33,372 nucleotides of DNA. Origin: Kiritimatiellia bacterium (GTDB lineage Bacteria > Verrucomicrobiota > Kiritimatiellia > B70-G9). The position numbers and the translations under genes are program-made. Under the pieces are notes generated by a model. That model did no database searches, was not told the origin of the DNA, and saw only the letters and a list, made by a program, of their open reading frames with translations. Below are positions 1 through 30,439 of this stretch, piece after piece (the stretch's first letter is position 1; each line of letters opens with the position of its first letter). The stretch covers positions 1-33,372 of the forward strand of contig DTYT01000041.1 in the NCBI GenBank assembly GCA_012961745.1. The letters are read 5' to 3'.

Positions 1-1
1 C

Positions 2-1030: not shown

Positions 1031-1305
1031 GCCCGAGATAATATCTTGACGGCGGCGGGGCTGTTTCGGGTTGCTGAAACGGTCGTCACTCCCACCGGAC
1101 GGGGGGAGACCCGCCGGGTATAGGTTGACTGCATCTCACCCGTGCGCTTAATTAGATACGTGAATAGCTGTGGTGAAGCAGCGTGCAACTACGGAGCCAC
1201 ATACGGTAACATATCTTCGCGGGCAGGAGGCATGCATCACTCCTGGTGCGATGTTGCCCCGGCCGATTTCCACGGGCACTGAAACCCAACCAAAGGTTCC
1301 ACACA

Positions 1306-6330: not shown

Positions 6331-7508
6331 GAATCCCTGCCAGTGGTGATCTGCACCTCACTTTCTGCCTCAACGCCTTCCCCTCCCCTCGCCCGGATGA
6401 CCTGGGACAATACTTCAACCAAGTGCTTCTGCCGATACGGGATCTGTCGGGATGCCAAGACAACCTTGGATGGGGCCTGTGGCTGGACCGGCGATCGGCG
6501 GCCCGACTCGCCGATCCCGTCCGGTCAGCGGCGTTCTGTGCCGGCCTGGCTCGGCATCAATTCTACCTCTTCACGCTGAACGGGTTCCCATACGGTGCGT
6601 TCCACGACTCCCGGATCAAGGAAAAGGTGTTCTATCCGGACTGGACCTCGCCGGAACGCCTGCATTACACACTGGAACTTGCCCGTGTACTCGGTACCTG
6701 TTCTCCACCGGACCGGTTGGGGAGTATCAGCACAGTGCCGCTGGGTGAACGCGCGGCGTTCCACTGCGACCATAAACGACGGCAGGCTGCCGGGATGCTG
6801 GTCCGGGCGGTCGCCGAGCTCGACTCTCTCCGTAAGACTCGCGGCATAACGGTCGTGCTGGCCTTGGAGCCCGAACCCGGAGCAGCCCTCGAAACCGGTG
6901 CCGAAGCCAGCGACTTCATTGAGAAAGTCCTCCTGCCGGAGGCCTCCGTGACAGATGCCGGCTTTGACGATCAGACCGTACTGCGTCACATCGGCATCTG
7001 CGTGGACCTCGCACATGCGGCTGTCATGGAAGAGTCCGTCATGGACCTTGCCGCCGAATGTCACCGGAGAAACATCCGCATCGCCAAGGTCCACATTAGT
7101 GCCGCTGTGTCGTTCCGTCCCACCCGGAGTGCACTGGAGCAGATGCACTTGCTGGCGGATCCGGTTTACCTTCATCAGCTCCGAGCCCGGCTCCCCGACG
7201 GTGGTATCGCCGCATGGCGTGATCTTCCGGATGCCCTCAGGGATCCCCGGCTGCTGGAATGTGACCAGGCGCGGATACATTTTCACGTTCCCCTGACCTG
7301 GCAAGGATCCGGTGATCTCCGTCCGGTGGCGGGTATACCCCCTCCGGAGATCGTGCAAGCCGTGGTCACGGCGGGCTGCCGGCACTTCGAGGTGGAAACC
7401 TACACCTATGCGGTATTGCCCCCCGAGTTGCGCCCTCAATCACCGATATCCGCGGCAGCCGCCGAACTAAGAACGGCCGCCAACCATCTCAAGGGGTACT
7501 ACCACTGA
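6327..7508 (+). CDS. Xylose-isomerase-like TIM-barrel protein, EboE-like
   Basis: The block YLFTLNGFPYGAFHDSRIKEKVFYPDWTSPERLHYTLELARVL matches my recollection of the EboE family signature (NGFPYG.FH...K..V..PDW). The start ATG overlaps the upstream stop (ATGA at 6327-6330). The family assignment is from memory and needs an HMM check. Confidence 0.5.
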   Translation: MRIPASGDLHLTFCLNAFPSPRPDDLGQYFNQVLLPIRDLSGCQDNLGWGLWLDRRSAARLADPVRSAAFCAGLARHQFYLFTLNGFPYGAFHDSRIKEKVFYPDWTSPERLHYTLELARVLGTCSPPDRLGSISTVPLGERAAFHCDHKRRQAAGMLVRAVAELDSLRKTRGITVVLALEPEPGAALETGAEASDFIEKVLLPEASVTDAGFDDQTVLRHIGICVDLAHAAVMEESVMDLAAECHRRNIRIAKVHISAAVSFRPTRSALEQMHLLADPVYLHQLRARLPDGGIAAWRDLPDALRDPRLLECDQARIHFHVPLTWQGSGDLRPVAGIPPPEIVQAVVTAGCRHFEVETYTYAVLPPELRPQSPISAAAAELRTAANHLKGYYH

Positions 7509-7526
7509 ATATGCCGGCCGGCGTCT

Positions 7527-8621
7527 TCAGGAGGCGGAACTCCGTTGCCGGCTCTCCTGAAGCATCGCAAGATCTGCGAGAACCAGAGCCGCCATGGCTT
7601 CGACCACGGGCACTGCCCGTGGGACGATACAGGGGTCGTGGCGCCCCTTCAGGATCAGCTCGCGTTCACGCCCCTCGTAATCCGCGGTTTTTTGGGGCAG
7701 GCGGATGCTGGCGGGCGGCTTGAAGGCCACTCGAAAGTAGATATCCTCGCCGTTGGTAATGCCACCCTGAACCCCGCCGCTGAAATTGCTCAACGTCCCG
7801 AGCCGTTGCCCCTTGCGCACAAAAGGATCGTTGTGCTGCAACCCACGCATGAGCGCTGCTCCAAAACCGCTACCGATATCAAAACCACGCGCCGCCGGGA
7901 TAGAAAGCATGGCCTGCGCCAGAAGCGCCTCCACCTTGCCGAACACAGGCTCCCCCCAGCCCGCTGGCGCGCCCCGGCATACGCAGCTGACGATCCCTCC
8001 AATACTGTCCCCTTCCCGCTTGACCTCCCGGATCAATTCCAGCATTGCGGCCGCCGCTTCCCGGTCCGGACAGCGGACCGCGGTTGCATCCACCTCCACC
8101 CGGCTGATCCGGCTCCGGTCCGGTTCCGGCGCGGCCACCGATCCCACACGGCTTACCCAGGCTACGATCTCAACCCCGTACCGCTCACGGAGCATCTTCT
8201 CGGCGACGGCGCCCCCCGCCACGCGCCCGACCGTCTCCCGTCCGCTCGCACGGCCGCCGCCGCTCTGCGCCTGCACTCCGTATTTGACCCGATACGCGTA
8301 ATCCGCGTGCGACGGGCGCGGTATTTTGCGGACGTCTTCGTAGTCGGAAGGATTCTGATCTTTGTTCCATACCAGCAGGGCTATCGGCGTACCCAGCGTA
8401 ATGTCCCCTTCCACGCCCGACAAGATCCGGACGCGGTCCTCCTCGGATCGGGGCGTATTCGCCTCACTCTGACCCGGCCGACGCCGATCAAGTTGCGCTT
8501 GGATATCCGACGGCACCAAGCGGATACCTGGCGGACATCCCTCCACAACAGCGCCGACCGCAGGGCCGTGGGACTCTCCGAAAGTCGTTATCCTGAAAAT
8601 CCGACCCAGTATGCTACTCAC
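7527..8621 (-). CDS. aroC: Chorismate synthase
   Basis: N-terminal signature FRITTFGESHGPAVGAVVEGCPPGI. Also SRPSHADYAYRVKYG, GGGRASGRETVGRVAGGAVA and LKGRHDPCIVPRAVPVVEAMAALVLAD. The ORF-track start at 8675 is a TTG. A GTG at 8621 gives VSSILGRIFRITTFGESHG with a GGAGG about 11 nt upstream and a typical length of about 364 aa. Confidence 0.9.
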   Translation of the reverse strand: MSSILGRIFRITTFGESHGPAVGAVVEGCPPGIRLVPSDIQAQLDRRRPGQSEANTPRSEEDRVRILSGVEGDITLGTPIALLVWNKDQNPSDYEDVRKIPRPSHADYAYRVKYGVQAQSGGGRASGRETVGRVAGGAVAEKMLRERYGVEIVAWVSRVGSVAAPEPDRSRISRVEVDATAVRCPDREAAAAMLELIREVKREGDSIGGIVSCVCRGAPAGWGEPVFGKVEALLAQAMLSIPAARGFDIGSGFGAALMRGLQHNDPFVRKGQRLGTLSNFSGGVQGGITNGEDIYFRVAFKPPASIRLPQKTADYEGRERELILKGRHDPCIVPRAVPVVEAMAALVLADLAMLQESRQRSSAS

Positions 8622-8778
8622 CCTCCCGTACACCTCCCGCCTGTCGAGAGTACACCGCCGCCCCGCCGCGGGCAAGCATGGGACAGGTGAGATTAGCCGA
8701 TGCGGCGCTCACGGCCCCGAAGCCTCGGAAATCGCGGTTGTCTCCGACCGCGCGGATGGGGCGCCCGGGCGGCAGCCC

Positions 8779-9939
8779 CTATTCGTTTTCTTCAGCAGGG
8801 GACACCGCTGGAAATATGAGACGGACCCGGGTGCCCTGATTGGGCCGACTTTCTACTTCAATGCGGCCGGAATGCTGCTCCACAATTTTCCTGGCGATAG
8901 CCATACCCAGTCCCATCCCGCCTCCTGCAGCCCGCGTGGTGAAATACGGCTCGAAGAGCCGCTGCATCACTTCGGCTGGCATGCCCGGGCCAGTGTCCTC
9001 CACGCATATCTCCACTTCACCATCCACTTTCCTCGTCATTACCCTTACTTCACCCGCCGTGGTGGAAGCCGCCTGGATGGCATTGGTGACTACATTGTGG
9101 ATCGCCCGCAGAAGCTGGCCGCGATCCCCGATGATATGCGGTACGCTTTCCCCGGTCTCGAACACCGGGTGGGGTGGAGAGCCCGCCTGCACGAAATTTA
9201 CGGCCACCCGAACGTCTTCGAGCAACTGCGCCGGATGGATTTTCTCCCGGCGCCTGCCGAGCTCGCCTTCCCGCCACATTGCAGCTAGATCCCGGCAGCG
9301 CCGTACGTTGTTCTCAATGATCTGTAGGTAGCGCAAGGCTTCCTCCCAATCCCCGTGCTCATTCTGCGACTTCTTCTCCAGTTCATCGGCAAGCATCTCC
9401 GTGTACCCGATAATGGTAGTAAGAGGGTTCCTCAGGTCGTGCAGTAACTCTGCTGATGCCTCTCCCAGCCGTGCCAGTTTTTCCAGGCGCGCCTTCTCCT
9501 CCACGGTGCGCCGGTTCAGCTCCCGCAGCTCCGCGATCAGCCGCAGCTTCTGCCGCTCGCGGCGCGTCCGTTCCACGTTTCGACGTACGACCCGCACCAT
9601 CTCGTGGGTATCAAAGGGCTTCGTTATATAGTCGGTGGCACCCAAGCGCAGGGCCTGCTGCGCGGTTTCCAAGGTGCCGTATCCGGTCAACACGATAACC
9701 GAAATCCGCCGGTCGATTTCACGTATTCTAGCCAGCCCCTCTATACCGTTCGTCCCCGGCATCCGGATGTCGATCACCACGGCATCGGCACCCAGATCCT
9801 GCAGCAGGCGGGCACCTTCATCCACGTTTGACGCAAGCAGTACATTGAATTGCTCCTTGAGAATGATCCTCAGGCTCTGGCGGGGTCCTTCTTCATCGTC
9901 GATCACCAACACTCGAGGTCGGTCAATGGTGGCCATCAT
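8779..9939 (-). CDS. Hybrid two-component protein: N-terminal receiver (REC), coiled-coil linker, HisKA and HATPase_c
   Basis: REC: RVLVIDDEEGPRQSL...DAVVIDIRMPGTNGIEGL...VIVLTGYG...DYITKPFD. H-box ELLHDLRNPLTTIIGYTEML. N/G boxes IHNVVTNAIQA and VEDTGPGMP...GGGMGLGMAIARKIVEQHSG. ATGATG at 9939/9936 is preceded by AAGGGAGGATA (strong SD). The longer ORF-track start at 10176 adds a Cys/His-rich leader and is not supported. Confidence 0.85.
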   Translation of the reverse strand: MMATIDRPRVLVIDDEEGPRQSLRIILKEQFNVLLASNVDEGARLLQDLGADAVVIDIRMPGTNGIEGLARIREIDRRISVIVLTGYGTLETAQQALRLGATDYITKPFDTHEMVRVVRRNVERTRRERQKLRLIAELRELNRRTVEEKARLEKLARLGEASAELLHDLRNPLTTIIGYTEMLADELEKKSQNEHGDWEEALRYLQIIENNVRRCRDLAAMWREGELGRRREKIHPAQLLEDVRVAVNFVQAGSPPHPVFETGESVPHIIGDRGQLLRAIHNVVTNAIQAASTTAGEVRVMTRKVDGEVEICVEDTGPGMPAEVMQRLFEPYFTTRAAGGGMGLGMAIARKIVEQHSGRIEVESRPNQGTRVRLIFPAVSPAEENE

Positions 9940-9984
9940 TATCCTCCCTTTCCGTGCCATCACGATGGATTGCCTACCGCTTGT

Positions 9985-10007
9985 CTGCGGGCACATTTCT
10001 CCCGCAG
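9985..10007. repeat. Perfect 7-bp inverted repeat CTGCGGG-N9-CCCGCAG in the divergent intergenic region
   Basis: Read directly: ctgcggg (9985-9991), cacatttct, cccgcag (10001-10007). It lies about 46 nt upstream of the REC-kinase start and about 90 nt upstream of the putative -35 for the KAS-like operon. Its function (operator or leader hairpin) is unknown, and it could occur by chance. Confidence 0.4.
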
Positions 10008-10094
10008 TGTGCGCGCAGCGGTGAGCACAAGCGATGCCAATACGAAATTGTCCAGATATGGGGGGGGAATTTGGAACTACCCCACATCTTGTGC

Positions 10095-10124
10095 TTGACG
10101 GTGTGCAAAAATGTAAACTATGAA
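10095..10124 (+). promoter_or_regulatory. Candidate sigma-70-type promoter for the KAS-like/kinase operon (TTGACG-N18-TATGAA)
   Basis: TTGACG at 10095-10100 and TATGAA at 10119-10124, within the only AT-richer stretch of this intergenic region. It sits about 37 nt upstream of the GTG at 10161. This is sequence pattern only, and the promoter consensus of the host is unknown. Confidence 0.35.
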
Positions 10125-10160
10125 CAAAAGCGTACAGGCAGGACGGGGAACCCCGGCACG

Positions 10161-11387
10161 GTGATAACACGCACACCAGTCATAACCGGCATTGGCGTAG
10201 CGGCGCCGAACGGGCTCGGACTGGACCGGTTCTGGAAAAATACACTTCAGCGGAAAAGTGGCGTGACTACCGTATCCCTCTTCGGCGCCGAGGGCCTGCC
10301 GTGTCGCATTGCGGGCGAAGTGTCCGAACTACGGGAAAATGACTGTACCCTACCACCGGGCCTGACACGCGCAACCCTCTTGGCCTTGCACGCTGCCCGA
10401 CTCGCCCTGACGGATGCCCGGCTGGTCCGCGAGCACGCCCCTGAAGATGAACCGGTACCGGTAATACTCGGTACAAGTACCGGCAGCCCGGAACCCCTCC
10501 CCAGGCAGTGGCCCTCCGATAAAGGTGCCGACGATGAATTTGTATACCAACCCGCTTGCACTTCACCGCAAGCCCAGGCCGTCTGGTCTATCCAGCGCCT
10601 CGGTGATCTCAATGGCCCCGTAGTCACCCTCTCAGGCGGCTGGACCGCGGGCCTTGAGGCTGTATCACTCGCTGCCGAATGGGTTCGGATGGGACGCTAC
10701 CGTATCGCGTTGGCGGGCGCCGTGGAAGCCCCACTGTCACGGCGCGTACTGGAGTCTTTCCTTGAATCCGGCGGGCTGGCCGCCCGCGCGGATCCCGAGG
10801 GGGTTCCCCGTCCCTTTGATCGTGACCGGGACGGCTGGGTTCTCTCGGAAGGTGCCGCGGTTGTCGTCGTGGAATCCGCGACATCTGCATGGGCGCGGGA
10901 AATGCAGCCTTATGCCTGTGTCGCCGGGTGTTATTCGTCTGGCGGTCGCAAGTATTCTGACATGGCCGAATCCCTCGCGCAGGCGATCCGAGGATGCCTT
11001 GCGGAGGCTTCCCTGCTGCCGGAACACATCCAGTACGTCTGCGCCAACGCCACTGGCGAGCGTACCACGGATGTGGCTGAAATCGCCGCTCTGAAACGGG
11101 CTTTCGGCAGGCACGCCTACCGATTGGCGATCAGCTCTATCAAGGGAGTCGTCGGTAATCCACTGGCCGCGGCCGGCCCTATGCAGGTCGCGGCGGCTGC
11201 CATGAGCATCCGTGAAAAACGTATTCCTCCTACTGCCAATCTGCGGGAGCCCGATCCCCAATGTGATCTGGACTGCGTGCGGGACCGGGCGCGACAGGTG
11301 GCGGTGCGCGCCGCGCTCGTCAATGCGCATGGCCGGGATGGAAACAGTCGCTGCATAGTCATGACCACCGCGGAGGGTACTGCATGA
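10161..11387 (+). CDS. Beta-ketoacyl-ACP synthase (FabF/FabB-fold) homologue lacking the Cys-His-His catalytic triad; predicted pseudoenzyme
   Basis: KAS blocks are retained: VITGIGVAAPNGLG, CRIAGEV, RPFDRDRDGWVLSEGAAVVVVES, SSIKGVVGNPLAAAG and IPPTANL.EPD..CDLD. The nucleophile position reads TLSGGWTAG (TGG at 10641-10643). The first His position reads CANATGE (AAC at 11046-11048). The second reads VGNPLAAAG (AAT at 11157-11159). The GTG at 10161 gives the usual short leader before VITG. The stop overlaps the next start (ATGA at 11384-11387). Confidence 0.8.
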   Translation: MITRTPVITGIGVAAPNGLGLDRFWKNTLQRKSGVTTVSLFGAEGLPCRIAGEVSELRENDCTLPPGLTRATLLALHAARLALTDARLVREHAPEDEPVPVILGTSTGSPEPLPRQWPSDKGADDEFVYQPACTSPQAQAVWSIQRLGDLNGPVVTLSGGWTAGLEAVSLAAEWVRMGRYRIALAGAVEAPLSRRVLESFLESGGLAARADPEGVPRPFDRDRDGWVLSEGAAVVVVESATSAWAREMQPYACVAGCYSSGGRKYSDMAESLAQAIRGCLAEASLLPEHIQYVCANATGERTTDVAEIAALKRAFGRHAYRLAISSIKGVVGNPLAAAGPMQVAAAAMSIREKRIPPTANLREPDPQCDLDCVRDRARQVAVRAALVNAHGRDGNSRCIVMTTAEGTA

Positions 11388-13888
11388 TCACGGCATGGCT
11401 GCTCTTCGGGATGGTTTTGGTCAATCTGACCGTAGCCTTGACAGTATACCTTACTAATCCCCGACGAGGCGCGAACCGTGCTTTTCTCATACTCGGCATG
11501 CATATGGGACTGTGGTCGGCATCCTCGCTGTTCTTGGTTTCGGCCAGCTCCCTCCGCGAAACTGAAATGTGGTTACGCACCTTCTTTGGCCTGGCGGCGT
11601 TCTTCCCGACATCCTTCACAATACTCTACCAGGCGGTCAAACTGGACGCCGACCGGCTGACCGAACCGGCAGTGCGCTCTCGGCTGCTTGCGTTTACCGG
11701 CGTAGTAGCCGCGGTGGCGGCATTTCATCCGGCATTTCTCAGTCTGCTGCATCCTCGGGAGGCCTCCGAGCTGCCTCCGGACGGTGTGCGATTCGGTCCC
11801 CTGTTCGTTTTCTACGGACTTTATCTCGTTCTGAGTGGAATAGTAGGAATCCTTTGCTTTCTCAGGGATAATCGCAGGACACAGGGAATCCGGCGTACCG
11901 AAATCCAGTACGTGGCTGCCGGATTCGCCTCCGCTTTCGCTATCGGTATCACTACCGTGATATTCATTCCCTATCTCTCCGGCCGTCCGCAGGGCGTCCT
12001 TTGGGGACCGGTGGTGGCCTCCGCGGCGTTGAGTCTGGTGGTGGCCTACGGCATAGCAACTACCAATATCATGGATGTATCCCAACTCATGCGGCGTATT
12101 TTTGGTTATGCACTGCTGCTGTTGTCCCTCTCCGGGTTGTACGCCCTGGTGCATCTGGTCGTCGCCCTCCTCCAGAGCAGAACCGGTTCCGATGCGCTCT
12201 GGCTGCCAGCCTTTGTGGCGGTGCTGGTTGTGGCGGCCTCGATGACTCCCGCCCAGGGCATTATGCGCCGACTCGCCCGCCGCCTTCTCATTTCTCCCCG
12301 GGAGGTCAATATTTCGCGGGCGATGGCGGCTGCGGGAGAAGTGATGTCTCCCGTCTCGACCGTGGACCGGCTGCTCTTGCGGTTCGCGAACGTAATCCAC
12401 GAGTATTTCGCCGCGTCGCACGTGGCGATCCTGATACGCAAAGGCAACGGCTTCGCGCAGGTCCAGCCTTCCCAACCCCGGGGTGGCCGCCCACTGCTGT
12501 ACCTGCCCGCGAGTGACCCGCTGATCCGGCACCTTCAGTCTTCGGGTTCCATTGTCAGCCGCCCTACCCTGCGACGACGCGGATCGGATGACCGCGCCGT
12601 ACTTCTGGCGAAACTGACCATGCTGAAAGCCGAACTCGCCGGGGGGATATCCGTGCGCGGCCGCCTGCAAGGCATCCTGCTGGTCGGTCCCCGTCCGGGT
12701 GGCGCAGTCTTCACCCGGCTGGAGCGGGTGGCCTTCCAACTTCTTCTGGGACAACTCGGGATCGCCCTGGAGAATGCGCTGTTGTATACCGAAGTACAGA
12801 ACAGCAAGATCTACAACGAAATCCTTCTCGAACATCTCCCTTCGGGAGTCATTGCGGCCGATAAGGCCGGCCGGATTACCGTTTGCAACCGGGAAGCGTG
12901 CCGGATCCTGAACGTGCAAAGGAACACTGTATTGGGACGAGCCCTGACTGCCATACCCCAGCCGTTGCACGCCCTGATGGACGATGTAATCCGAAGCGGC
13001 CGTGAGGTGCGGGACAAGGAAATTGTCCTCCCCGCAGGGGGAACCGAGACCCCGCTGCGCGTGGGTGGCGCGCGGGTTCACAATGACCGCGGCAGGCTCC
13101 TGGGAACCATCTTCACCCTCAGCGACCTGAGCCGGGTGAAGGAGCTGGAACAACAGGTACGCCGCTCCGACCGGCTGGCCAGTGTAGGAACGCTCTCTGC
13201 GGGGATGGCCCACGAAATCAAGAATCCCTTGGTGGCTATCAAGACCTTCGCACAACTGCTTCCGGAAAGATACAATGAACCCGACTTCCGGGAGACCTTC
13301 TCCCAGCTTCTACAAAAGGAAGTCGAACGCATCGACGACATTGTCACCCAGCTGCTGAACTTTGCACGCCCACGCAAGGTGGCTTCCGAACTTTGTCATC
13401 TCCATGAAGTCATCCGCCGGTCCCTGAAACTGATCCAGCAACAGGTGGAAAAACGCAACATCTCGCTGGAATGCCGTTTGGATGCCCCCCGTGATGCGAT
13501 CCGGGGAGACCATGCCCTGCTGGAACAGACGTTCCTCAATTTCTTCATTAACGCCATGGAAGCGATGAACCATAGGGGCAGCTTGAGCGTGACCAGCGAT
13601 CTCCTCGAAGACCCCGGGCACGACCACGACCCTTCCCATATTCGCGTGCGTGTACAAGACAGCGGACAGGGTATCGCACCGGAACATATCGAGCGGATCT
13701 TCGATCCTTTTTTCACCACCAAAGAAAACGGTACCGGGCTCGGTCTCTCTGTGGCTCATGAAATAATAGAGGAACACGGCGGGAGCGTGGAAGTAAGCAG
13801 CCGCCTCGGACAGGGAACCACTTTCACTCTGGTATTTCCCTTAGCTGAACAATGCATTGCTCCCGGACCCGACCAGGATGAATGCTGA
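11384..13888 (+). CDS. Membrane sensor histidine kinase: N-terminal multi-TM (HisKA_7TM-like) domain, GAF/PAS-like regions, HisKA and HATPase_c
   Basis: About 7 hydrophobic helices occupy the first 300 aa or so (NRAFLILGMHMGLWSASSLFL...). PAS-like segment LEHLPSGVIAADKAGRITVCNREACRILN. H-box GMAHEIKNPLVAIKTFAQLLPERYNEPDFRETF. N box FLNFFINAMEAM. G boxes VQDSGQGIAPEHIERIFDPFFTTKENGTGLGLSVAHEIIEEHGG. GGAGGG lies 7-12 nt upstream of the ATG. Confidence 0.88.
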   Translation: MITAWLLFGMVLVNLTVALTVYLTNPRRGANRAFLILGMHMGLWSASSLFLVSASSLRETEMWLRTFFGLAAFFPTSFTILYQAVKLDADRLTEPAVRSRLLAFTGVVAAVAAFHPAFLSLLHPREASELPPDGVRFGPLFVFYGLYLVLSGIVGILCFLRDNRRTQGIRRTEIQYVAAGFASAFAIGITTVIFIPYLSGRPQGVLWGPVVASAALSLVVAYGIATTNIMDVSQLMRRIFGYALLLLSLSGLYALVHLVVALLQSRTGSDALWLPAFVAVLVVAASMTPAQGIMRRLARRLLISPREVNISRAMAAAGEVMSPVSTVDRLLLRFANVIHEYFAASHVAILIRKGNGFAQVQPSQPRGGRPLLYLPASDPLIRHLQSSGSIVSRPTLRRRGSDDRAVLLAKLTMLKAELAGGISVRGRLQGILLVGPRPGGAVFTRLERVAFQLLLGQLGIALENALLYTEVQNSKIYNEILLEHLPSGVIAADKAGRITVCNREACRILNVQRNTVLGRALTAIPQPLHALMDDVIRSGREVRDKEIVLPAGGTETPLRVGGARVHNDRGRLLGTIFTLSDLSRVKELEQQVRRSDRLASVGTLSAGMAHEIKNPLVAIKTFAQLLPERYNEPDFRETFSQLLQKEVERIDDIVTQLLNFARPRKVASELCHLHEVIRRSLKLIQQQVEKRNISLECRLDAPRDAIRGDHALLEQTFLNFFINAMEAMNHRGSLSVTSDLLEDPGHDHDPSHIRVRVQDSGQGIAPEHIERIFDPFFTTKENGTGLGLSVAHEIIEEHGGSVEVSSRLGQGTTFTLVFPLAEQCIAPGPDQDEC

Positions 13889-15923
13889 GCCCACAACGTG
13901 TGTCATTTACAGCGCCGACCGATACTGGAGCCGGCGCCTGGCCGCAGAATTGGCTCTTCACGATGTGGATGTCACGATATCCTCTGACCGTCGCAGACTC
14001 TTAAGGAAAATTGATAGCGGCCACAGCAGCGCGGTGGTGGTGGATCTGCTTTCGCCCGGCTCGCTGCAATTGGTGCGCATGCTGTTGCAGCACCGACCGG
14101 GCCTGCCGGTCATCGCCTGCGGAAAGACCCGCACATCTCCCTTTATGGATGCACTCCACACCGGGATCTTTGCCGCGCTCGACCGCGGCGGACCGATTCA
14201 ATCCATCGCTTCGGTAGTCAGGTCGGCATTGATGTTCCGCCCTGAGACTTCTCCGGGAACGAAACCAACCTCGGAAGGCGAAAAGCAGCTCGACGACACC
14301 GCCGGGTCTCCGGCAACCATCCCCGCGCTGCTACCATCCCCCGGGCTCTTTCTGCATAACCCCACGCCCGAAGCGTTAACCGCTTATCTGGAGGCCTGGC
14401 TGCAGGCCCTATCCGCGCGATTCGGTGTGCTTCGCAGCAGCCTGTTCCTCAAAGACCCGGATACCGGCGAGTTCGCCGCGGCAATCACCATCAACTGCAC
14501 ACCCGAAATCAGGGAAACGAAGCTGCGGCCTGACGCGGGTCTGCCGACATACCTGGAAAAAGAGGCAACCACCCTGATCAGCGGCAGCGCACCGCGTCTC
14601 CTCGCCAGCCAGCTTGCCCGTATCGGCGCGGATCTTGTCGTGCCCCTGCTGGGGGATGATGGCCTGATCGGGTGGGCTGGCCTGTCCCGCCCCGCGGATG
14701 GTTCACACTGGGACGCCAACCGGCGCCGTGAGATAGCAGGCGAGTTCGTCCGCATGGCCGGCTTCCTCACACAAAGCCAGCAAGCGGCCGTCGCGGACTC
14801 GCTGGAACCGGCAATACAGGTGTTCGGGGAGGCTCTCGCCTGCGGGCTGGTAGCGGTGGACAGCAAAGCGCGCATCATTTTCATTAATCCAGTGGCGGCC
14901 CGCCTGCTGGACCTTCAGCCGGATATCGGCCCGGGAAGCGAGATCGAAGCCCTTGGCACCACGATGGCCGACATGGTCTACCGGGCGCTGGCAGGTGAGA
15001 GGGTCGAACGCAGGTTCAATGTCCCTGGCCGACCGCAGATTCTCATTCTGGCGCAGGTACTGCCGGTAGTGCGTTCGGGACGCCGTATGGCCGTTGCTGT
15101 ACTTCGCGAGATAATCCCCGAGGTGCCATCTGAAGAATCTCCCACGCCAGAGGGGGGCCCCAAGGAGGTTGTCGACGAAGACATCGTATGGGAGCAGGTG
15201 GCCGAAGGGCTCGCCCATCAGATCCGCAATCCGCTGGTGGCCATCAAGACTTTCGCCCAGCTCCTGCCGGAACGCTATCAGGACCCGGACTTCCGCACGG
15301 AGTTTGGCGTACTGGTCAACCGGGAAGTCGAACGGCTCAACGGCCTTCTCAACAGCATCGCCGCTCTGGGCCGCCCGCTGCAACCGAACCGGCGGCCGGT
15401 AGATATCCATATGCTGATAAAGCGCGGGCTGAACATGGCCCTGGTTCGCAACAAGCGGGCACCCCTCAAGAAAATCGAAGTCCACGTGCCGGATCATCTG
15501 CCGCGTATACCGGCGGACGAGGAAATGCTCACCGAGGCCTTCGTTCAACTGTTCACCAATGCTATCGAAGCCGCGACGCAGAGAAAGATGCCGCGCATAA
15601 GCGTCAGCGTGCAGGTGTGTGCCCCCCCGGACAGTGGATTGATTGGCATACAGATCGAAGACAACGGGCCCGGAATACCGGAAGACGTCCGCAAGTTTCT
15701 GTTCTCGCCGTTCTGTGGCACCAAGGCCCACGGGCTGGGATTCGGGCTGTGCATCGCCCGGCGTGCGATACGTGCCCACGGCGGCACTATAGAAATTGCC
15801 AGTTCCCGCGCCGGCACCCAGGTCTTCGTGAAACTTCCCTTTGGAGCCCAGAAGCCTGAAACACCCAGCACCCAGCGGAGGTCGCAACGAAATGAAGAAC
15901 AAGCACCTGCTGATCGTGGATGA
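13878..15923 (+). CDS. Cytoplasmic sensor histidine kinase: degenerate receiver-like N-terminus, GAF/PAS-like regions, HisKA and HATPase_c; paralogue of the preceding kinase
   Basis: No hydrophobic helices. The N-terminus has a REC-like layout (CVIYSAD...SSAVVVDLLSPGSLQLVRML...PVIACGKT...FAALDRG) with an incomplete acidic pocket and the conserved Lys position changed. H-box GLAHQIRNPLVAIKTFAQLLPERYQDPDFRTEF. N box FVQLFTNAIEA. G boxes IEDNGPGIP and GLGFGLCIARRAIRAHGG. The ATG at 13878 overlaps the upstream stop by 11 nt; the ORF-track start at 13857 is a TTG. Confidence 0.85.
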   Translation: MNAEPTTCVIYSADRYWSRRLAAELALHDVDVTISSDRRRLLRKIDSGHSSAVVVDLLSPGSLQLVRMLLQHRPGLPVIACGKTRTSPFMDALHTGIFAALDRGGPIQSIASVVRSALMFRPETSPGTKPTSEGEKQLDDTAGSPATIPALLPSPGLFLHNPTPEALTAYLEAWLQALSARFGVLRSSLFLKDPDTGEFAAAITINCTPEIRETKLRPDAGLPTYLEKEATTLISGSAPRLLASQLARIGADLVVPLLGDDGLIGWAGLSRPADGSHWDANRRREIAGEFVRMAGFLTQSQQAAVADSLEPAIQVFGEALACGLVAVDSKARIIFINPVAARLLDLQPDIGPGSEIEALGTTMADMVYRALAGERVERRFNVPGRPQILILAQVLPVVRSGRRMAVAVLREIIPEVPSEESPTPEGGPKEVVDEDIVWEQVAEGLAHQIRNPLVAIKTFAQLLPERYQDPDFRTEFGVLVNREVERLNGLLNSIAALGRPLQPNRRPVDIHMLIKRGLNMALVRNKRAPLKKIEVHVPDHLPRIPADEEMLTEAFVQLFTNAIEAATQRKMPRISVSVQVCAPPDSGLIGIQIEDNGPGIPEDVRKFLFSPFCGTKAHGLGFGLCIARRAIRAHGGTIEIASSRAGTQVFVKLPFGAQKPETPSTQRRSQRNEEQAPADRG

Positions 15924-17298
15924 CGAGGCCAGCACGCGCGAGTCGCTGCGGATGGTCTTCGAAAAGGATTATGCCGTATCGCTGGCCACGAGTGCCGCCG
16001 AAGCCCGACAAATAGTGGCCCGAAGCAATATCGACCTGGTTCTGCTGGACATAATCATGCCAGATGTCGACGGCATCACGTTCCTTCACGAACTCCACAC
16101 CGAATACCCCGACCTCCCGGTGGTGATGATAAGCGCCGCTTCATCCGTAAAGCGGGTGGTGGAAGCCATGAAGGAGGGTGCCTGGGATTATGTGACCAAG
16201 CCTTTCGATGTGGCCGAACTGCGCCACATCGTCTCGCGGGCCCTCGAAAACTCCCGGCTCAGGAGAAAACTGCATGAACTACAATGTGAAGTGGCCGAGG
16301 AGTTCCCCGTAGACCGCATAGTAGGGAATGCGCCTTTGTTTGCCCAGGCTCTCCAGGTTGTCCGCAAGGCCGCCTCAACCGATTCCACCATCCTGATCAT
16401 CGGTGAAAGCGGTACGGGGAAGGAATTGATCGCTCGTTTGGTTCACCGGCTGAGTCCCAGACGGGATGAACCGTTCGTCCCGGTGCATTGCGGGGCGATT
16501 CCGGAACAGCTGATGGAAAGCGAACTGTTCGGCTACGAAAAAGGCGCTTTCACCGGCGCCGACCGCCGCAAGCCCGGTCGTTTTGATATGGCCGGATCGG
16601 GAACCATCTTTTTCGACGAGATAAGTGAAACGCCGCATTCCGCACAGGTAAAGCTGCTCCGTGTACTGCAGGAGCGGGAGTTCGTCCGGGTAGGTGGCTC
16701 AGAGGTGGTCCGGACCGACGCGCGCATAGTCGCCGCAACCGCACAGAATCTTGAGAAACTGGTCGAGCAAGGCCGCTTCCGACGGGACCTCTTCTACCGG
16801 CTGAGCGTGGTGCCGGTGCGTCTGCCTCCCCTCCGCAATCGGCGGGAGGATATTCCCCTGCTGGCACAGTACTTCCTGAACTACTTCGGCCGCAAGGTCG
16901 GTTCCCGCCTAAGCAGTATCGACCGCGACGCCATGCGCCTGCTCCTGCGCTATGACTGGCCCGGCAACATCCGGGAACTACGCAACCTCATCGAGCGAAT
17001 GGCCGTACTGCACCGTGACCAGGATATGTTGCAGCCGGAGTTTCTACCGGAAGAATTCCATGTCCAGAACCTGTTTGCCCCCCTGCACGCCGGAACCTTC
17101 ACACTGGAGGAGGCAGTCAACGACTTCGAGCGTCATCTGGTGATCGACGCTCTCAAGAAAGCCGGCGGAGTGCAAACGCGCGCGGCTGAGCTGCTGGGAA
17201 CAACCCGCCGCATACTGAAGTACCGGATCGAGAAACTCAACATCCAACCGCAGGACTTCCGCCCCACCGTATCGTCTCCCCAGAAGGAGCGTCCCTGA
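15892..17298 (+). CDS. Sigma-54-dependent response regulator (NtrC-family enhancer-binding protein: REC, AAA+ and Fis-type HTH)
   Basis: REC: HLLIVDDEASTRESL...DLVLLDIIMPDVDGI...VVMISAASS...DYVTKPFD. AAA+: ILIIGESGTGKELIARLVH, the GAFTGA loop ESELFGYEKGAFTGA, and WPGNIRELRNLIER. HTH: TRAAELLGTTRRILKYRIEKL. The ATG at 15892 has a GGAGG 10 nt upstream and overlaps the upstream kinase by 32 nt. Confidence 0.93.
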   Translation: MKNKHLLIVDDEASTRESLRMVFEKDYAVSLATSAAEARQIVARSNIDLVLLDIIMPDVDGITFLHELHTEYPDLPVVMISAASSVKRVVEAMKEGAWDYVTKPFDVAELRHIVSRALENSRLRRKLHELQCEVAEEFPVDRIVGNAPLFAQALQVVRKAASTDSTILIIGESGTGKELIARLVHRLSPRRDEPFVPVHCGAIPEQLMESELFGYEKGAFTGADRRKPGRFDMAGSGTIFFDEISETPHSAQVKLLRVLQEREFVRVGGSEVVRTDARIVAATAQNLEKLVEQGRFRRDLFYRLSVVPVRLPPLRNRREDIPLLAQYFLNYFGRKVGSRLSSIDRDAMRLLLRYDWPGNIRELRNLIERMAVLHRDQDMLQPEFLPEEFHVQNLFAPLHAGTFTLEEAVNDFERHLVIDALKKAGGVQTRAAELLGTTRRILKYRIEKLNIQPQDFRPTVSSPQKERP

Positions 17299-17309
17299 CA
17301 CCCCCCCTG

Positions 17310-18536
17310 TCAGATCCCCCCTTCTATGAAGCCTCGAGCCGTGGCAAAAGCCCTGTCCAGATCTTCTCCGCGATCCAGTGAGGCCACGAGCACCGCCGGC
17401 ACGCGGCTGCGTCGCTTCAGCGCCGGCATCAGACGCTGCAGTGTATTCCGAATTTCCCGGCGATTCCGCCAGCCATCCAGGATCAGGCGGGCAAAGGTTT
17501 CCTCCGTAAAGCGGGAAAAGCCGAGACAGTATGCGGACAATTCCAAGGTCTCCATGAAATGGGCGAGCTTTGGCTGATACTCCAGCGCCACCACCGGGGT
17601 CAGCTCGCCGGCCGCCATGATGGCACAATGCAGACGCATCGCACAGACCATGTCCACTCGTCCAAGGACCCCCTTGACCACGTAGTGGTCGTAATCGGCA
17701 TTACTCAGCAACGCCCGCCTGTTCGGCAGCCGCACCATTGACATAAGGCGGCGGGTCACTTCCACATCCATGTACTGCGTGCAAACGAACACCACGTCCG
17801 CCCCGATCTCTTCCAGCGCACGGTTCAAGCCTGCCGCATAGATGTCCAGAACCTTCTCGCCCAGCTGTAGAGACCCTTCCGCCCAACTGTCGAAGTATCG
17901 GTTGATATTCACCGCCAGAATCGGACGATCGCGATTCAGTCCCCTTTCCTCCATCACTCGCTCGACCACTTCCGCAGGAGCCGGACACACGTCCAGCGCC
18001 GCGTCAGCTCCCAAAAGCACCCGGCTGTTCTGCACACCCAGCTCCTCCATGATTCGCAGGGATGCCCGGTCACGCACGGTTACGAAGTCCATCAATTCCA
18101 GCAATCCTCTCAGCATGCGCCGCCCGGCTCGCGTCGAGACCGGCCCCACACCGATATCATAGCACCCCAAGAGCTTCCCGCGGCGCTTGACCGCCGGCAG
18201 CATCGCGTACAGCGACGACATGAAATTGAAAAGCGGATTATATAATTCCCGATCAAACAGAATCGCATCGAATACCAGCGTCAGGTCGGTCCGCATCATC
18301 GAACGCCAGGTGGGCAGCCCCAGCATTTTCAGCGACAGGTGCCAAGGCATCATGGATACCGGACGGGTGCGATTGGGATAATGTTTCCGGATATAGGAAG
18401 GGCGAATGGTCGGTATCTCATACAGCACCCTGCGCCCGCAGGCCTCATCTATCGCCGCCATAAGGCCGGCGAGCAAGGCGGCATCGCCGGCATTGCGGCC
18501 CGAGGAACTGCCCAGCAGCGTTAGGCTGCCAATCAC
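17310..18536 (-). CDS. Polysaccharide pyruvyl transferase family protein
   Basis: The N-terminus LTLLGSSSGRNAGDAALLAGLMAAIDEA is typical of PS_pyruv_trans (CsaB/WcaK-like) proteins, as are the length and the C-terminal MRLHCAIMAAGELTPVVALEYQPK. The GTG start overlaps the upstream stop (GTGA at 18533-18536). Confidence 0.7.
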   Translation of the reverse strand: MIGSLTLLGSSSGRNAGDAALLAGLMAAIDEACGRRVLYEIPTIRPSYIRKHYPNRTRPVSMMPWHLSLKMLGLPTWRSMMRTDLTLVFDAILFDRELYNPLFNFMSSLYAMLPAVKRRGKLLGCYDIGVGPVSTRAGRRMLRGLLELMDFVTVRDRASLRIMEELGVQNSRVLLGADAALDVCPAPAEVVERVMEERGLNRDRPILAVNINRYFDSWAEGSLQLGEKVLDIYAAGLNRALEEIGADVVFVCTQYMDVEVTRRLMSMVRLPNRRALLSNADYDHYVVKGVLGRVDMVCAMRLHCAIMAAGELTPVVALEYQPKLAHFMETLELSAYCLGFSRFTEETFARLILDGWRNRREIRNTLQRLMPALKRRSRVPAVLVASLDRGEDLDRAFATARGFIEGGI

Positions 18537-19369
18537 TGCACCGCTCCGCTTGACCGGTTCGTTTCCGGCCCAGTGGCTCGTTTACGTCTGGCAAGCCGCA
18601 GAAGCCGTAAGGCCACCTCCCCCGCACCAGGACGCTCACCCACCACACCTACTCCACCGGAGACCTCCAGCAAACCACGACGCAGCGATGTCACCGGCTG
18701 ACAGGGATCAAACCCGGTAGGGACATGCGTGGCCGGGCTTCCTACGTATCTCTCCTCGCCGGGTAAGGGAAGCGAATCAGACCCTGCGGCCACCACGTAT
18801 CCCGCCCCCCGTGCCAGTTTCAGTAGTCCGGGAAGCGGACTGCTCCGGGGTAACAAGGAGCTTACCGAAAGAACAAACTTCCCCGGGATATAGGCGTCGA
18901 TCAGGTTGCGGATCTGTCGCCCGCGCCGGAATGTCCACTTGCCGGGAGACCATGGCAGCACGGGAATCCCCCCCCTCTCGCGGATAGCGTTGAGCAGATA
19001 GTCAACAGCGTGTCCCGACGGGAGATCGCTTTCCGTGCCTACTTCCAGTATTTCCAGAGCCTCATAGGTGACCATCTGCCTGCCCGGAATCAGCAGCAGC
19101 TCGCCGCCCGAGGGGGAAGATACCCTGGCCGCACCCTCCTGATGTTCCTCCACCGAATAGCCGCCTCCTTCCAGGGAAACCTGTATCCGCTCCACCATGC
19201 CGCTGAAACTGCCCTTACCGGTAGTCAGCACACACAGCACCCCGCACCAGTCATCCTCCTCTCCGGTGCGGTGGGCCGCCTCCTGCAGGTTCTGCATGGC
19301 CGCCTCTATCCATCGAGGGATGGCGAAACAATCATACAAGTGAACATGAATGTCCGCGAGGACCCGCAT
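18533..19369 (-). CDS. Uncharacterised protein with an N-terminal D-x-H-x-H metal-hydrolase-like motif (amidohydrolase/TatD/PHP superfamily-like)
   Basis: It starts MRVLADIHVHLYDCF, which is the D.H.HL.D pattern of metal-dependent hydrolases, and has a later AAGSDSLP. The ATG at 19369 has an AGAGGAG SD. It is coupled to the pyruvyl transferase. The coding call is solid; the functional call is weak. Confidence 0.6.
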   Translation of the reverse strand: MRVLADIHVHLYDCFAIPRWIEAAMQNLQEAAHRTGEEDDWCGVLCVLTTGKGSFSGMVERIQVSLEGGGYSVEEHQEGAARVSSPSGGELLLIPGRQMVTYEALEILEVGTESDLPSGHAVDYLLNAIRERGGIPVLPWSPGKWTFRRGRQIRNLIDAYIPGKFVLSVSSLLPRSSPLPGLLKLARGAGYVVAAGSDSLPLPGEERYVGSPATHVPTGFDPCQPVTSLRRGLLEVSGGVGVVGERPGAGEVALRLLRLARRKRATGPETNRSSGAVQ

Positions 19370-19496
19370 CCCGAAAACTCCTCTGCCATAATCAGGCCCT
19401 TATTGCCCCGTGAGATGCGGCTTGGCAAGAAATAATGAGCCGACTTTCTTCTTTTCCCCATACGTCCACTCCACTAGTCTCCTGGCGCAAGTCGCG

Positions 19497-20507
19497 ATGC
19501 ACGCAAACGACGTACAACCAAGACCGGAAATCAATCTGGTAACGGGGGCCAGTGGATTCGTGGGCAGCGCCCTGGTGGACTACTTGCACAGATTGGGGCG
19601 CCCTGTGCGGGCGATGGTACGTAATCCGGCCGCCGTGCCGCCGCTGCGGGCCAGGGGTATCCCTGTCACCGTGGCGGACCTGCACGACTATCAGTCCTTG
19701 CTCAAGGCGGTACAAGGTGTCGATTACATCTACCATATCGCTGCTCTTTTCCGCCAAGCAGGCCTTCCCGAGCGCGAATTCTACGAGGTAAACGCGGAGG
19801 GGACACGCCGACTTCTGGAGGCCGCCGTAGCCGGGGGAGTCAGGCGCGTGGTTCACTGCTCCACCGTGGGAGTCCTGGGACACATAAACAATCCGCCGGC
19901 CGATGAAGAGGCCCCTTATAATCCCGGCGATGTCTACCAGCGCAGCAAGATGCAAGGTGAAAAGATCGCCCTGCAATATTTCCGCAGCGGAAAAATTGCG
20001 GGAGTAGTGATCCGTCCGGCGATGATCTACGGACCGGGTGACCGGAGAACCCTGAAACTCTTCCGCATGATCGCCCGGCGCAGGTTCTTCTACGTGGGAT
20101 CAGGGGAGCTGGAGGTACACTTCGTCGATGTGCGGGACTTGGTCCGGGCTTTCGTAATGGCCATGGATCGTGAGGAAATCTCCGGCGAAGTATATATCAT
20201 TGCGGGGGAACGCGCCCTGCCCCTGCGCGAAATGGTGGAAATTGTCGCCCGCGAACTGGGGGTGGCCCCGCCGCGATGGCACCTTCCTGTACGTCCCCTG
20301 CAATGGCTCGGCAGTATCTGCGAAAGCGTCTGTATCCCTCTGCACATCCAGCCGCCCATCTTTCGCCGCCGCGTAGACTTTTTTACCAAACGCCGCTCAT
20401 TCGACACCTCCAAGGCCGCGCGCGAGCTAGGGTATTCTCCCGCCAAGTCGGTTGAAGAGGAAGTCGCGGAAATCATTGCGTGGTACCGGCAACATGGCTG
20501 GCTGTAA
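19497..20507 (+). CDS. NAD-dependent epimerase/dehydratase (extended SDR family)
   Basis: Rossmann motif INLVTGASGFVGSALVDYL. Catalytic YxxxK in DVYQRSKMQGE. Also VVIRPAMIYGPGD. The ATG at 19497 gives a standard N-terminus. The ORF-track start at 19410 is a GTG with an atypical 29-aa leader. Confidence 0.85.
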   Translation: MHANDVQPRPEINLVTGASGFVGSALVDYLHRLGRPVRAMVRNPAAVPPLRARGIPVTVADLHDYQSLLKAVQGVDYIYHIAALFRQAGLPEREFYEVNAEGTRRLLEAAVAGGVRRVVHCSTVGVLGHINNPPADEEAPYNPGDVYQRSKMQGEKIALQYFRSGKIAGVVIRPAMIYGPGDRRTLKLFRMIARRRFFYVGSGELEVHFVDVRDLVRAFVMAMDREEISGEVYIIAGERALPLREMVEIVARELGVAPPRWHLPVRPLQWLGSICESVCIPLHIQPPIFRRRVDFFTKRRSFDTSKAARELGYSPAKSVEEEVAEIIAWYRQHGWL

Positions 20508-20514
20508 ATGCCCG

Positions 20515-21315
20515 CTAGCGGAAATCTCCGGTGGCGGCACCAACCCGCAGGAACTTACGCTCATCTCCGAATTCCAACCATACTCCCCGGTTGCCAACCA
20601 AAAGAACCCGTACACCCTCGACCATATCACCGCCGCCGACAATCCGACCGTTGACGATCGCCGCCGACGCTCCGCCCGCCTGGCGGATGATACCGGACAC
20701 CTGCAACGGCGGCCACACAGGCGACCTTCGGGATGGAACCGGCTGTACCGGCTCCCCGGATACCGCTTGTGGTTCTTGCACAGCGACCGGAGGTTTCCGG
20801 GAGGCTGCTTCCGGGAGTGCCTGGCGGGCTGCAACTGCGGCAGTCGCCGCAGAGGCAGGATCACCTTCAGGAGATGTGCGGGTCCGCCCCGATGTCGATT
20901 TCGCTTCCCCCGCGGACAGATCCGGAGCCACCGGCGCCGCCTGTCGCCCCGCCGGCTCTGCAGGTGCAGGCTCCGCTGGCGGCGCCGCGGAAGAACCCTT
21001 CGGATGAACCGCCTCCGCCAGAGTCCCGGATATCGCCTCTAGCGGTTCCTCCTTCACCGGCTTCGAGACCACCGCCGCTTTTCCGGAGCCCAGACGCGGC
21101 AAGGCACGCACAATGAACAGGAGCAATCCCACTGCACTGGCCGATACTACAAGCACCAGGATCAGAACCGACAGGAGCGCGAGCCACTCTTTACGGGATG
21201 AATCCGTGGCAGCAACTACGGGCTCAGACGGAGCTTCCGTCCGATCTCCCGGAGACTCAGGCGGTCGGCCGCCATCCGCTTCCCGGCGCCGTAAGGCCTC
21301 CTGGATCAGACTCAT
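20515..21315 (-). CDS. GspB/ExeB-like protein (N-terminal MSLIQEAL motif, one TM, Pro/Ala-rich linker, C-terminal GspB-type domain)
   Basis: The N-terminus MSLIQEALRRRE resembles the MSYILDAL.K.E opening of GspB/ExeB. TM helix WLALLSVLILVLVVSASAVGLLLFIV. The C-terminus LQVSGIIRQAGGASAAIVNGRIVGGGDMVEGVRVLLVGNRGVWLEFGDERKFLRV matches the GspB C-terminal pattern (L.L.G......A.ING..V..GD...G..V..I....V.L). The start overlaps the upstream stop (ATGA at 21312-21315). Confidence 0.65.
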   Translation of the reverse strand: MSLIQEALRRREADGGRPPESPGDRTEAPSEPVVAATDSSRKEWLALLSVLILVLVVSASAVGLLLFIVRALPRLGSGKAAVVSKPVKEEPLEAISGTLAEAVHPKGSSAAPPAEPAPAEPAGRQAAPVAPDLSAGEAKSTSGRTRTSPEGDPASAATAAVAARQALPEAASRKPPVAVQEPQAVSGEPVQPVPSRRSPVWPPLQVSGIIRQAGGASAAIVNGRIVGGGDMVEGVRVLLVGNRGVWLEFGDERKFLRVGAATGDFR

Positions 21316-22121: not shown

Positions 22122-22142
22122 CTGCCCATCCGTCTATCCCAT

Positions 22143-22171
22143 CTCATACTCACAGATCTGGTCGGCGTCAA
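22143..22171 (-). promoter_or_regulatory. Candidate internal sigma-70-type promoter upstream of the ExeA-like gene (TTGACG-N17-TATGAG on the minus strand)
   Basis: On the minus strand, TTGACG lies at 22171-22166, followed by a 17-nt spacer and TATGAG at 22148-22143. This is about 22 nt upstream of the ATG at 22121. Pattern only. Confidence 0.3.
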
Positions 22172-22197
22172 CGGTAAGTTCTGTCCCGGCATGGCGG

Positions 22198-30395: not shown

Positions 30396-30424
30396 TGCTC
30401 TTACCCTGCGGTTCGGATGAACAA

Positions 30425-30439
30425 GCAGAATCGGTGCCA
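30425..30439 (-). promoter_or_regulatory. Candidate sigma-54 (-24/-12) promoter upstream of pilB
   Basis: The minus strand reads CTGGCAC-CGATT-CTGCT (GG at -24, GC at -12, correct 5-nt spacing), against the consensus TGGCAC-N5-TTGCW. The -12 GC is about 30 nt upstream of the pilB ATG at 30395, which leaves a short leader containing the SD. Pattern only. Confidence 0.45.

Follow-up and report, generated by a model that had tools for sequence, protein, structure and literature searches.

A catalytically dead ketosynthase homologue at the head of a predicted kinase and sigma-54 activator cassette in a Kiritimatiellia bacterium

Introduction

Two-component systems are well catalogued, yet the inputs of most sensor kinases are unknown. 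The stretch of DNA analysed here, 33,372 nt of contig DTYT01000041.1 from a Kiritimatiellia bacterium (hereafter the window), raises this question in a particular form. Why does a homologue of beta-ketoacyl-ACP synthase (KAS; ACP, acyl carrier protein) that has lost its catalytic residues stand as the first cistron before genes for two histidine kinases (HK1 and HK2) and a sigma-54 enhancer-binding protein (EBP)? A preliminary description had suggested that the KAS-like protein reports acyl or lipid status to the kinases, which would in turn control sigma-54 promoters such as a candidate in front of pilB. Its author knew of no described signalling module of this kind, and our literature search found no published description of a KAS-kinase cassette. 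In the reading that we consider the best explanation overall, and to which we give even chances, the window carries a degenerate member of a cassette family in which the KAS-like protein serves HK1 as a non-catalytic partner or co-sensor and the EBP acts on a divergent promoter.

Results

The KAS homologue is the first gene of an overlapping four-gene unit

Four open reading frames (ORFs) on the plus strand encode the KAS-like protein (10161-11387, starting with GTG; 408 aa), the membrane sensor kinase HK1 (11384-13888; 834 aa), the cytoplasmic kinase HK2 (13878-15923; 681 aa) and the NtrC-type response regulator EBP (15892-17298; 468 aa), with overlaps of 4, 11 and 32 nt. Read base by base, the KAS stop and the HK1 start share ATGA at 11384-11387, preceded by GGAGGG at 11372-11377. 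The HK2 ATG at 13878 lies ahead of the HK1 TGA (13886-13888), and the EBP ATG at 15892 lies ahead of the HK2 TGA (15921-15923), with a GGAGG at 15877-15881, 10 nt before that ATG. The ORF list and the junctions confirm in every detail the earlier picture of same-strand genes joined by overlaps, and they indicate that the unit is real and translationally coupled. The GTG at 10161 is the most plausible start of the KAS-like gene, as the resulting N-terminus lines up with the starts of orthologues (MRHTPVITG in L001; such labels denote the DNA contexts of relatives). The public gene call P0001 (468 aa) begins about 180 nt too early and runs over the conserved sigma-54 promoter and dyads described below.

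On the minus strand, separated from the KAS-like gene by an intergenic region of 220 nt (9940-10160), lies a divergent gene for a receiver (REC)-HisKA-HATPase kinase (8779-9939; 386 aa; ATG at 9939 with a GGAGG 5 nt upstream), hereafter the REC-kinase. The preliminary description had spoken of a two-kinase cassette; HK1 and HK2 were confirmed, but this third kinase belongs to the cassette in almost all loci. Its orthologue occupies the same divergent position in L001-L003, L005, L007-L009, L089, L090 and L092-L094 and in most of the metagenome loci introduced below.

The KAS-like protein has lost its catalytic triad and is maintained by selection

Domains were called with Pfam and NCBIfam, and transmembrane (TM) segments were assessed by hydropathy. 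The KAS-like protein resembles FabF/KAS II in matching both Pfam halves of the family (ketoacyl-synt, PF00109, 3e-26; Ketoacyl-synt_C, PF02801, 2.8e-24) and in an identity to FabF of about 30%. In alignments to Bacillus subtilis FabF and to genome FabF proteins, the catalytic Cys corresponds to Trp161, His303 to Asn296 and His340 to Asn333. The GFGG gating loop has become GRDG and HGTST has become NATGE; Lys328 and the equivalents of FabF Lys335, Asp311 and Glu314 are retained. At 227.8 bits, the protein scores about half the TIGR03150 cutoff of 493.75, and no other NCBIfam KAS model's cutoff is reached. The window also differs from FabF/KAS II in having no fab or ACP neighbours and in its obligate coupling to kinases. 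Since the Cys is gone (Trp-Asn-Asn), the window protein cannot condense acyl chains, and with catalysis excluded it can act only by binding.

The fold itself appears intact. An AlphaFold2 model built with 120 homologues reached a pLDDT of 89.9 and a pTM of 0.91, with disorder limited to residues 109-133, and Foldseek aligned it to FabF structures (1e5m, 4ls5) with TM-scores of 0.88-0.91. Hydropathy showed no hydrophobic segments in the KAS-like protein, HK2 or the EBP, as expected of cytoplasmic proteins. Between the window and L001, the KAS-like proteins are 80% identical, with a synonymous divergence (dS) of 0.62 and a ratio of nonsynonymous to synonymous substitution (dN/dS) of 0.18. The same comparison, at dS of about 0.6, gave dN/dS values of 0.195 for HK1, 0.25 for HK2 and 0.06 for the EBP. 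All members of the small clade to which the window belongs (P0001, P0002, P0003, P0005 and L095; 45-95% identity) carry Trp at the Cys position. The confident FabF fold, the purifying selection and the constancy of this Trp together mark it as a maintained pseudoenzyme. The homologue had been called dead, and this holds in that all three triad residues are replaced, yet the gene is under selection.

These data also bear on the possibility that the gene is decaying into a pseudogene, or that it lies beside an unremarkable two-component operon by chance. The triad is wholly lost, residues 109-133 of the model are disordered, and in the Trp clade KAS diverged faster relative to HK1 (KAS/HK1 identity ratio of about 0.9, versus about 1.1-1.25 in the type A and type B cassettes defined below). 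This faster divergence fits with a function that shifted or was relaxed once the Cys had gone. However, the reading frame is unbroken in five or six independent samples that share the same Trp at 45-95% identity, dN/dS ranges from 0.13 to 0.28, the model is confident and the arrangement recurs in about 95 loci. Pseudogene decay is effectively refuted, and we put the chance of it or of a chance neighbourhood close to nil.

Cys-less proteins of the thiolase fold act as non-catalytic partners elsewhere, as in the chain-length factor or KS-beta of actinorhodin synthesis (1TQY_B) and in PqsB of PqsBC. The structure 1tqy_B was among the structural matches of the KAS-like model. KS-beta has Gln for Cys and an adjacent active KS subunit, whereas the window protein has Trp and its partner gene encodes a histidine kinase. 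Membership of the chain-length factors was therefore rejected: the residue is Trp and not Gln, and there is no second KAS ORF in the window or in L001-L003.

The KAS-kinase linkage recurs in many independent loci

We surveyed the gene neighbourhood of relatives in three samples, with ORFs taken from stop to stop and assigned by phmmer against the window proteins. Thirteen contexts were fetched by protein identity, namely L001-L004 (the window clade), L005, L007, L008, L089-L091 and L092-L094, and three further genome loci with the cassette were added (L009, Verrucomicrobiae; L010, Nitrospirales; L051, Lentisphaerae). Every one of these encodes KAS, then a multi-TM kinase, then a second kinase. 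Scanning metagenomes with a motif specific to the family yielded at least 400 confirmed loci, 80 of which were fetched and analysed. HK1 lies downstream of KAS in 63 of the 64 loci with at least 400 nt of downstream sequence, and HK2 comes next in 35 of the 35 with at least 3.2 kb. In 49/64 metagenome loci the KAS stop and the HK1 start overlap, by 4 nt (NTGA) in 36 and by 1 nt in 13, and in most others the two lie 1-3 nt apart. With the same gene order present in about 95 independent loci, chance falls far short of explaining the arrangement. The preliminary description had staked its proposal on conservation of the KAS/kinase/EBP linkage in related genomes, and the survey decides that point in its favour.

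A scan of genome contigs with the full KAS alignment served as the control. One of its motifs (PDPxCDLDYV) is generic, and the scan returned mostly ordinary FabF and type II polyketide synthase genes; the 80 loci sampled from it, most of them matched by way of a motif that all FabF-type proteins share, were used as an unbiased control. All 76 synthases with a canonical Cys-His-His triad were without a kinase neighbour, and all four non-canonical proteins (CYN, CHQ, CYH and CHI) had one. Linkage to a kinase and loss of the canonical triad thus go together, and every kinase-linked KAS homologue that we examined is without Cys-His-His.

The nearest relatives outside the Trp clade are about 40% identical to the window protein and carry the names Kiritimatiellae, Lentisphaerota, Pontiella, Verrucomicrobiae and Chthoniobacterales. 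All of them keep the Cys and have Asn for the second His. The earlier notion of a pseudoenzyme as first cistron therefore applies to the small clade of the window, but not to the hundreds of related cassettes that keep the active-site Cys. Judged from these alignments, the window is a rare, degenerate derivative of a wider cassette family.

Three forms of the cassette differ in the KAS active site and the divergent genes

For the purposes of this analysis we labelled the cassettes as type A, type B and window type; the counts that follow overstate independence, because the groups are clades. In type A, the KAS triad positions read Cys-His-Asn, divergent genes for a FadL/Toluene_X channel (the first gene) and the REC-kinase are present in 19/20 loci, and an EBP gene follows HK2 in 9/10. 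In type B, they read Cys-Tyr-Asn, the divergent REC-kinase stands alone in 25/25 loci with FadL absent, and the cassette holds an EBP gene in 0/11. This Cys-Tyr-Asn clade makes up 43 of the 80 metagenome loci; both His are replaced and the Cys is strictly retained. The window type reads Trp-Asn/Trp-Asn, has the divergent REC-kinase alone without FadL, and retains the EBP. Loci with Trp at the first His (L091, L148 and L163) are also without FadL, and the losses of the first His, perhaps three or four of them independent, all coincide with the absence of FadL.

This association between FadL and the first His keeps a quorum-sensing-like origin as the main rival explanation. Here the ancestral Cys-His-Asn KAS would make a hydrophobic signal out of fatty-acid intermediates, FadL would pass it through the outer membrane, HK1 would receive it and the EBP would close a positive loop by acting on the FadL gene; the window clade would be a listener no longer capable of synthesis, with a dead synthase kept as a kinase-binding regulator or as a slowly changing relic. 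Synthases encoded next to a sensor kinase are known from CqsA-CqsS and LqsA-LqsS. PhcB-PhcS-PhcR-PhcQ of Ralstonia and the diffusible signal factor systems RpfF-RpfC/RpfR likewise have, as here, a lipid-metabolism enzyme homologue beside a multi-TM kinase. The order of synthase first, then sensor kinase and regulators, is that of phcBSRQ (PMC8578825), RpfF, a homologue of fatty-acid enzymes, binds its own receptor directly (PMC6361424), and FadL modulates signalling by long-chain acyl-homoserine lactones (PMC9938287). The presence of FadL goes with an intact first His, and FadL is gone whenever that His or the Cys is gone. The cassette is without ACP or other biosynthetic genes, and signal synthases typically use housekeeping pools. 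However, only the outlying L037 (Cys-Tyr-His) among the members retains the second His, and the large Cys-Tyr-Asn clade, with no His but a strict Cys, fits acyl capture better. The window protein, with the Cys and both His gone, is not a competent signal synthase and is incapable of synthesis, yet it is constrained like the kinases. The synthases of the Phc, Rpf, Cqs and Lqs systems are active members of the methyltransferase, crotonase and aminotransferase families, whereas the window has an inactive FabF fold, a sigma-54 EBP as output and two extra kinases. On balance we regard this origin as possible but somewhat doubtful.

The strict Cys of type B, in the absence of either His, speaks for the capture of acyl groups or for thiol chemistry rather than for decarboxylative condensation. 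Taken further, kinase-linked KAS paralogues might form a new class of cytoplasmic co-sensor, in which a hyper-reactive active-site Cys is S-acylated from acyl-ACP or acyl-CoA, or hit by an electrophile, and its state is read by HK1, the Trp clade being a locked acyl-mimic. The FabF C163Q mutant is known to mimic the acyl-enzyme. By analogy, the Trp indole would fill the active site, and sensing would be left to the TM, GAF and PAS modules of the kinases. We consider this scheme unlikely; if true, it would let bacteria read the supply of acyl chains directly and covalently.

The kinases and the EBP are of ordinary type

HK1 matches HisKA_7TM (PF16927) over residues 8-232 with 39.7 bits against a cutoff of 28.6, followed by a weak GAF match, PAS, HisKA and HATPase_c. 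Hydropathy gave eight segments above threshold and one weaker, so that the description of HK1 as a 7TM kinase stands for the domain match, but the count is eight or nine hydrophobic segments and not strictly seven. HK2 combines weak GAF and weak PAS matches with HisKA and HATPase_c. The last two domains exceed the Pfam cutoffs in both kinases, with the H-boxes AHEIKNPL in HK1 and AHQIRNPL in HK2. Residues 1-118 of HK2 (13878-14231) form a divergent receiver-like domain that Pfam missed, in which the position of the acceptor Asp is retained and the conserved Lys has gone; receiver domains were compared with hhalign, which aligned HK2 N-termini to the REC domains of cassette EBPs with a probability of 96% (E 4e-9). 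The sensor region of HK1 (residues 1-470), used as a query for homologues, returned five weak matches, and the known orthologues were not among them.

The EBP contains Response_reg (PF00072), Sigma54_activat (PF00158, 7e-67), AAA_lid_14 (PF25601) and HTH_8 (PF02954), with readable GESGTGKE and GAFTGA motifs, which places it in the NtrC family; it is 92% identical to its L001 orthologue. In the REC-kinase, Pfam found Response_reg at 10-118, HisKA at 159-218 and HATPase_c at 271-378. Its REC domain is 31% identical to that of the EBP (hhalign E 1e-37), and since the two receivers are closely similar they may share a phosphodonor.

None of the cassette proteins reaches any NCBIfam equivalog cutoff. 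AtoS and AtoC, the best NCBIfam matches of HK1 and the EBP, have in common with them the HE[IV]KNPL H-box and the REC-AAA+(GAFTGA)-HTH_8 architecture; the window differs in its sensor of 8-9 TM segments plus GAF, its extra kinase and its KAS-like accessory. Membership of AtoS/AtoC was rejected on scores of 338.8 against 646 (NF008468) and 446.3 against 714 (NF008469), and membership of PrsK/PrsR of the PEP-CTERM system on scores of 100 against 300 (TIGR02916) and 385.2 against 502.6 (TIGR02915). By these family models, the kinases, like the EBP, are unremarkable in type and members of no named system.

A conserved sigma-54 element faces the divergent kinase gene

A sigma-54-type -24/-12 element, TGGCATCGCTTGTGCT (10024-10039), lies on the minus strand about 85 nt upstream from the ATG of the REC-kinase. 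Its GG at -24 and its GC at -12 are spaced canonically, and it lies at the same place in 10 fetched loci (L001-L005, L007-L009, L089 and L090), with a perfect form, TGGCACGGCGTTTGCT, in L089. Among the metagenome loci, the element was present on the minus strand in 36/59 versus on the plus strand in 9/59. Two adjacent 16-bp dyads of the form TGTNCA-N4-TGTNCA, TGTGCAAAAATGTAAA at 10102-10117 and TGAACAAAAGCGTACA at 10121-10136, are preceded by a conserved block, ACATcTTGTGCTTGAC (about 10085-10100), and constitute a candidate enhancer (upstream activating sequence) for the EBP. They are the only two matches to this pattern in the 33-kb window and are conserved in L001-L003, and the dyad of L002 is a perfect palindrome, TGTACATTAATGTACA. 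The dyads lie about 80-110 bp upstream of the -24/-12 element, and this spacing stays fixed also when the KAS start lies over 300 bp off, as in L005. Dyads upstream of a -24/-12 element are the classical enhancer geometry of NtrC-type activators. From this geometry we infer that the EBP drives the divergent REC-kinase gene, together with FadL in type A, and the REC-kinase gene is likely to be a direct target of the cassette EBP.

In front of KAS, a conserved block, TTGTGCTTGAC, was considered as a sigma-54 promoter and rejected for its wrong spacing. Six type B loci (L099, L131, L140, L146, L157 and L173) carry a plus-strand -24/-12 element, TGGCA[CT]GCAAGGTGCA, about 150 nt upstream of KAS. 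These elements face the KAS operon although the cassette is without an EBP gene.

The orientation of the conserved promoter also bears on a further alternative, in which KAS is an enzyme of lipid or polyketide type, itself under regulation, whose only tie to its regulators is the common operon and which plays no part in signalling. Enzymes are often co-transcribed with regulators, the Cys is kept in most family members, and polysaccharide and envelope genes lie near several loci. However, the window protein is without the Cys and both His and so cannot be an enzyme that the system produces. A first cistron that overlaps the kinase start in most loci is typical of subunits, not targets. In the fetched loci no partner enzyme (ACP, reductase or acyltransferase) is conserved beside KAS, and the conserved sigma-54 promoter points away from it. 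We judge this alternative very unlikely.

Control of pilB by the EBP, as first envisaged, is not borne out. A good -24/-12 element, TGGCACCGATTCTGCT, does lie on the minus strand at 30424-30439, 30 nt before a plausible pilB/mshE start at ATG 30394, but the sole conserved sigma-54 promoter with dyads that is tied to the cassette faces the REC-kinase, and a whole-window search found no TGTNCA dyads upstream of pilB. The listed pilB ORF, starting at TTG 30617, is probably too long. The encoded PilB/MshE ATPase has an MshEN domain, a c-di-GMP-binding N-terminus. In the same pilus cluster, a PilS-like protein (26182-27489, minus strand; 6TM_PilS, PAS, HisKA) ends without HATPase_c, and its gene is followed by a Lyase_1 gene, not pilR; the pilus cluster of the window shows no pilR. 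At 20515-23130 on the minus strand, genes for an AAA_22 ATPase and then a TPR protein adjoin an ABC-2 transporter pair; we take the AAA_22 and TPR pair to resemble MshM/MshN of MSHA-type pilus loci.

Neighbouring genes

The gene order around the cassette is shared within the Trp clade with L001-L003, down to 45% KAS identity (window regions compared: 1-9939 and 17310-20507). The conserved upstream neighbours are genes for a Calx-beta protein, phoH, 7TMR-HD, ybeY, corC, an unknown gene and aroC; downstream are a pyruvyl transferase gene, an unknown gene and an epimerase gene. In a search with AroC, identities of 65-68% were reached equally by proteins of Desulfobacterales, Geoalkalibacter, Chitinivibrionales, Planctomycetota and Lentisphaerae. 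The convergent polysaccharide pyruvyl-transferase gene stops 11 nt past the EBP stop at 17298, and there is no terminator hairpin between the two ends (17296-17312). In L001, the called EBP and pyruvyl-transferase genes overlap (17130 and 17069). An Rfam scan of the whole window gave no match.

In the type B loci L007, L092 and L094, genes for a 620-810 aa protein and a ParA/MinD-like ATPase, both divergent, lie past the divergent REC-kinase; the larger protein has a weak Lant_dehydr_N match in two of the three. A fructose-bisphosphate aldolase gene follows HK2 in the same loci. In two unrelated loci, a gene for a FAD_binding_4 protein of about 530 aa adjoins the cassette (L089, 3494-5092; L091, 1246-2838).

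Discussion

A view of the KAS-like protein as a subunit or co-sensor of HK1 is suggested by its position as first cistron, the overlap with the kinase start, the lack of biosynthetic partners and an evolutionary rate like that of the kinases. On this preferred reading, the KAS-like protein would be made in fixed proportion with HK1 and would serve as a cytoplasmic, non-catalytic partner or co-sensor. HK1 and HK2 would phosphorylate the EBP, and probably also the closely similar receiver of the REC-kinase. The phosphorylated EBP would then bind the two TGTNCA-N4-TGTNCA dyads and switch on the divergent sigma-54 promoter. In the Cys-His-Asn relatives, the same promoter would drive both a FadL-type channel for hydrophobic compounds and the REC-kinase. 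An acyl or lipid-like input is the most likely one in view of the FabF fold, FadL as a target and the multi-TM sensor, and to regard the KAS-like protein as a putative acyl- or lipid-sensing accessory subunit, as first suggested, appears reasonable. The window clade would have lost the FadL channel gene along with the Cys, leaving a KAS-like subunit that is probably binding-only or in a fixed state.

Several points weigh against this interpretation. At 16 matches versus 15 expected, the -24/-12 pattern shows no enrichment across the window, and because this count equals chance, the weight of the element comes only from its positional conservation. No promoter for the KAS operon was found, as neither a sigma-70-like nor a plus-strand -24/-12 element lies in front of KAS. 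The motif used to select the metagenome loci already includes the change of the second His to Asn. The cognate kinase-regulator pairs are guessed, and the FadL and EBP associations perhaps rest on few independent events, roughly three or four losses. Finally, the loss of the Cys could mean that the KAS-like subunit senses nothing in the window clade.

Non-kinase proteins encoded beside a kinase can gate its activity, as in DbfQ-DbfRS (PMC12714742). The known accessories are periplasmic or membrane proteins, whereas the accessory of the window is a full-size cytoplasmic protein with an enzyme fold. The novelty of the locus is a two-component/EBP pathway with an unprecedented enzyme-fold accessory, in which a fold from fatty-acid synthesis has been recruited as the obligate first cistron of a kinase cassette.

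The cassette is carried by at least 400 public metagenome loci, with lineage names that include Kiritimatiellae, Lentisphaerota, Verrucomicrobiota and Nitrospirales. The public label 'beta-ketoacyl-ACP synthase' for its first protein misleads metabolic reconstructions of these little-studied phyla. The variants found in nature (Cys-His-Asn with FadL, Cys-Tyr-Asn and dead Trp) form a series that could serve to separate catalysis from signalling. In conclusion, the KAS-kinase cassette may represent a new mode of sensing lipid or acyl status in these bacteria, or point to a new class of lipid-derived signal.

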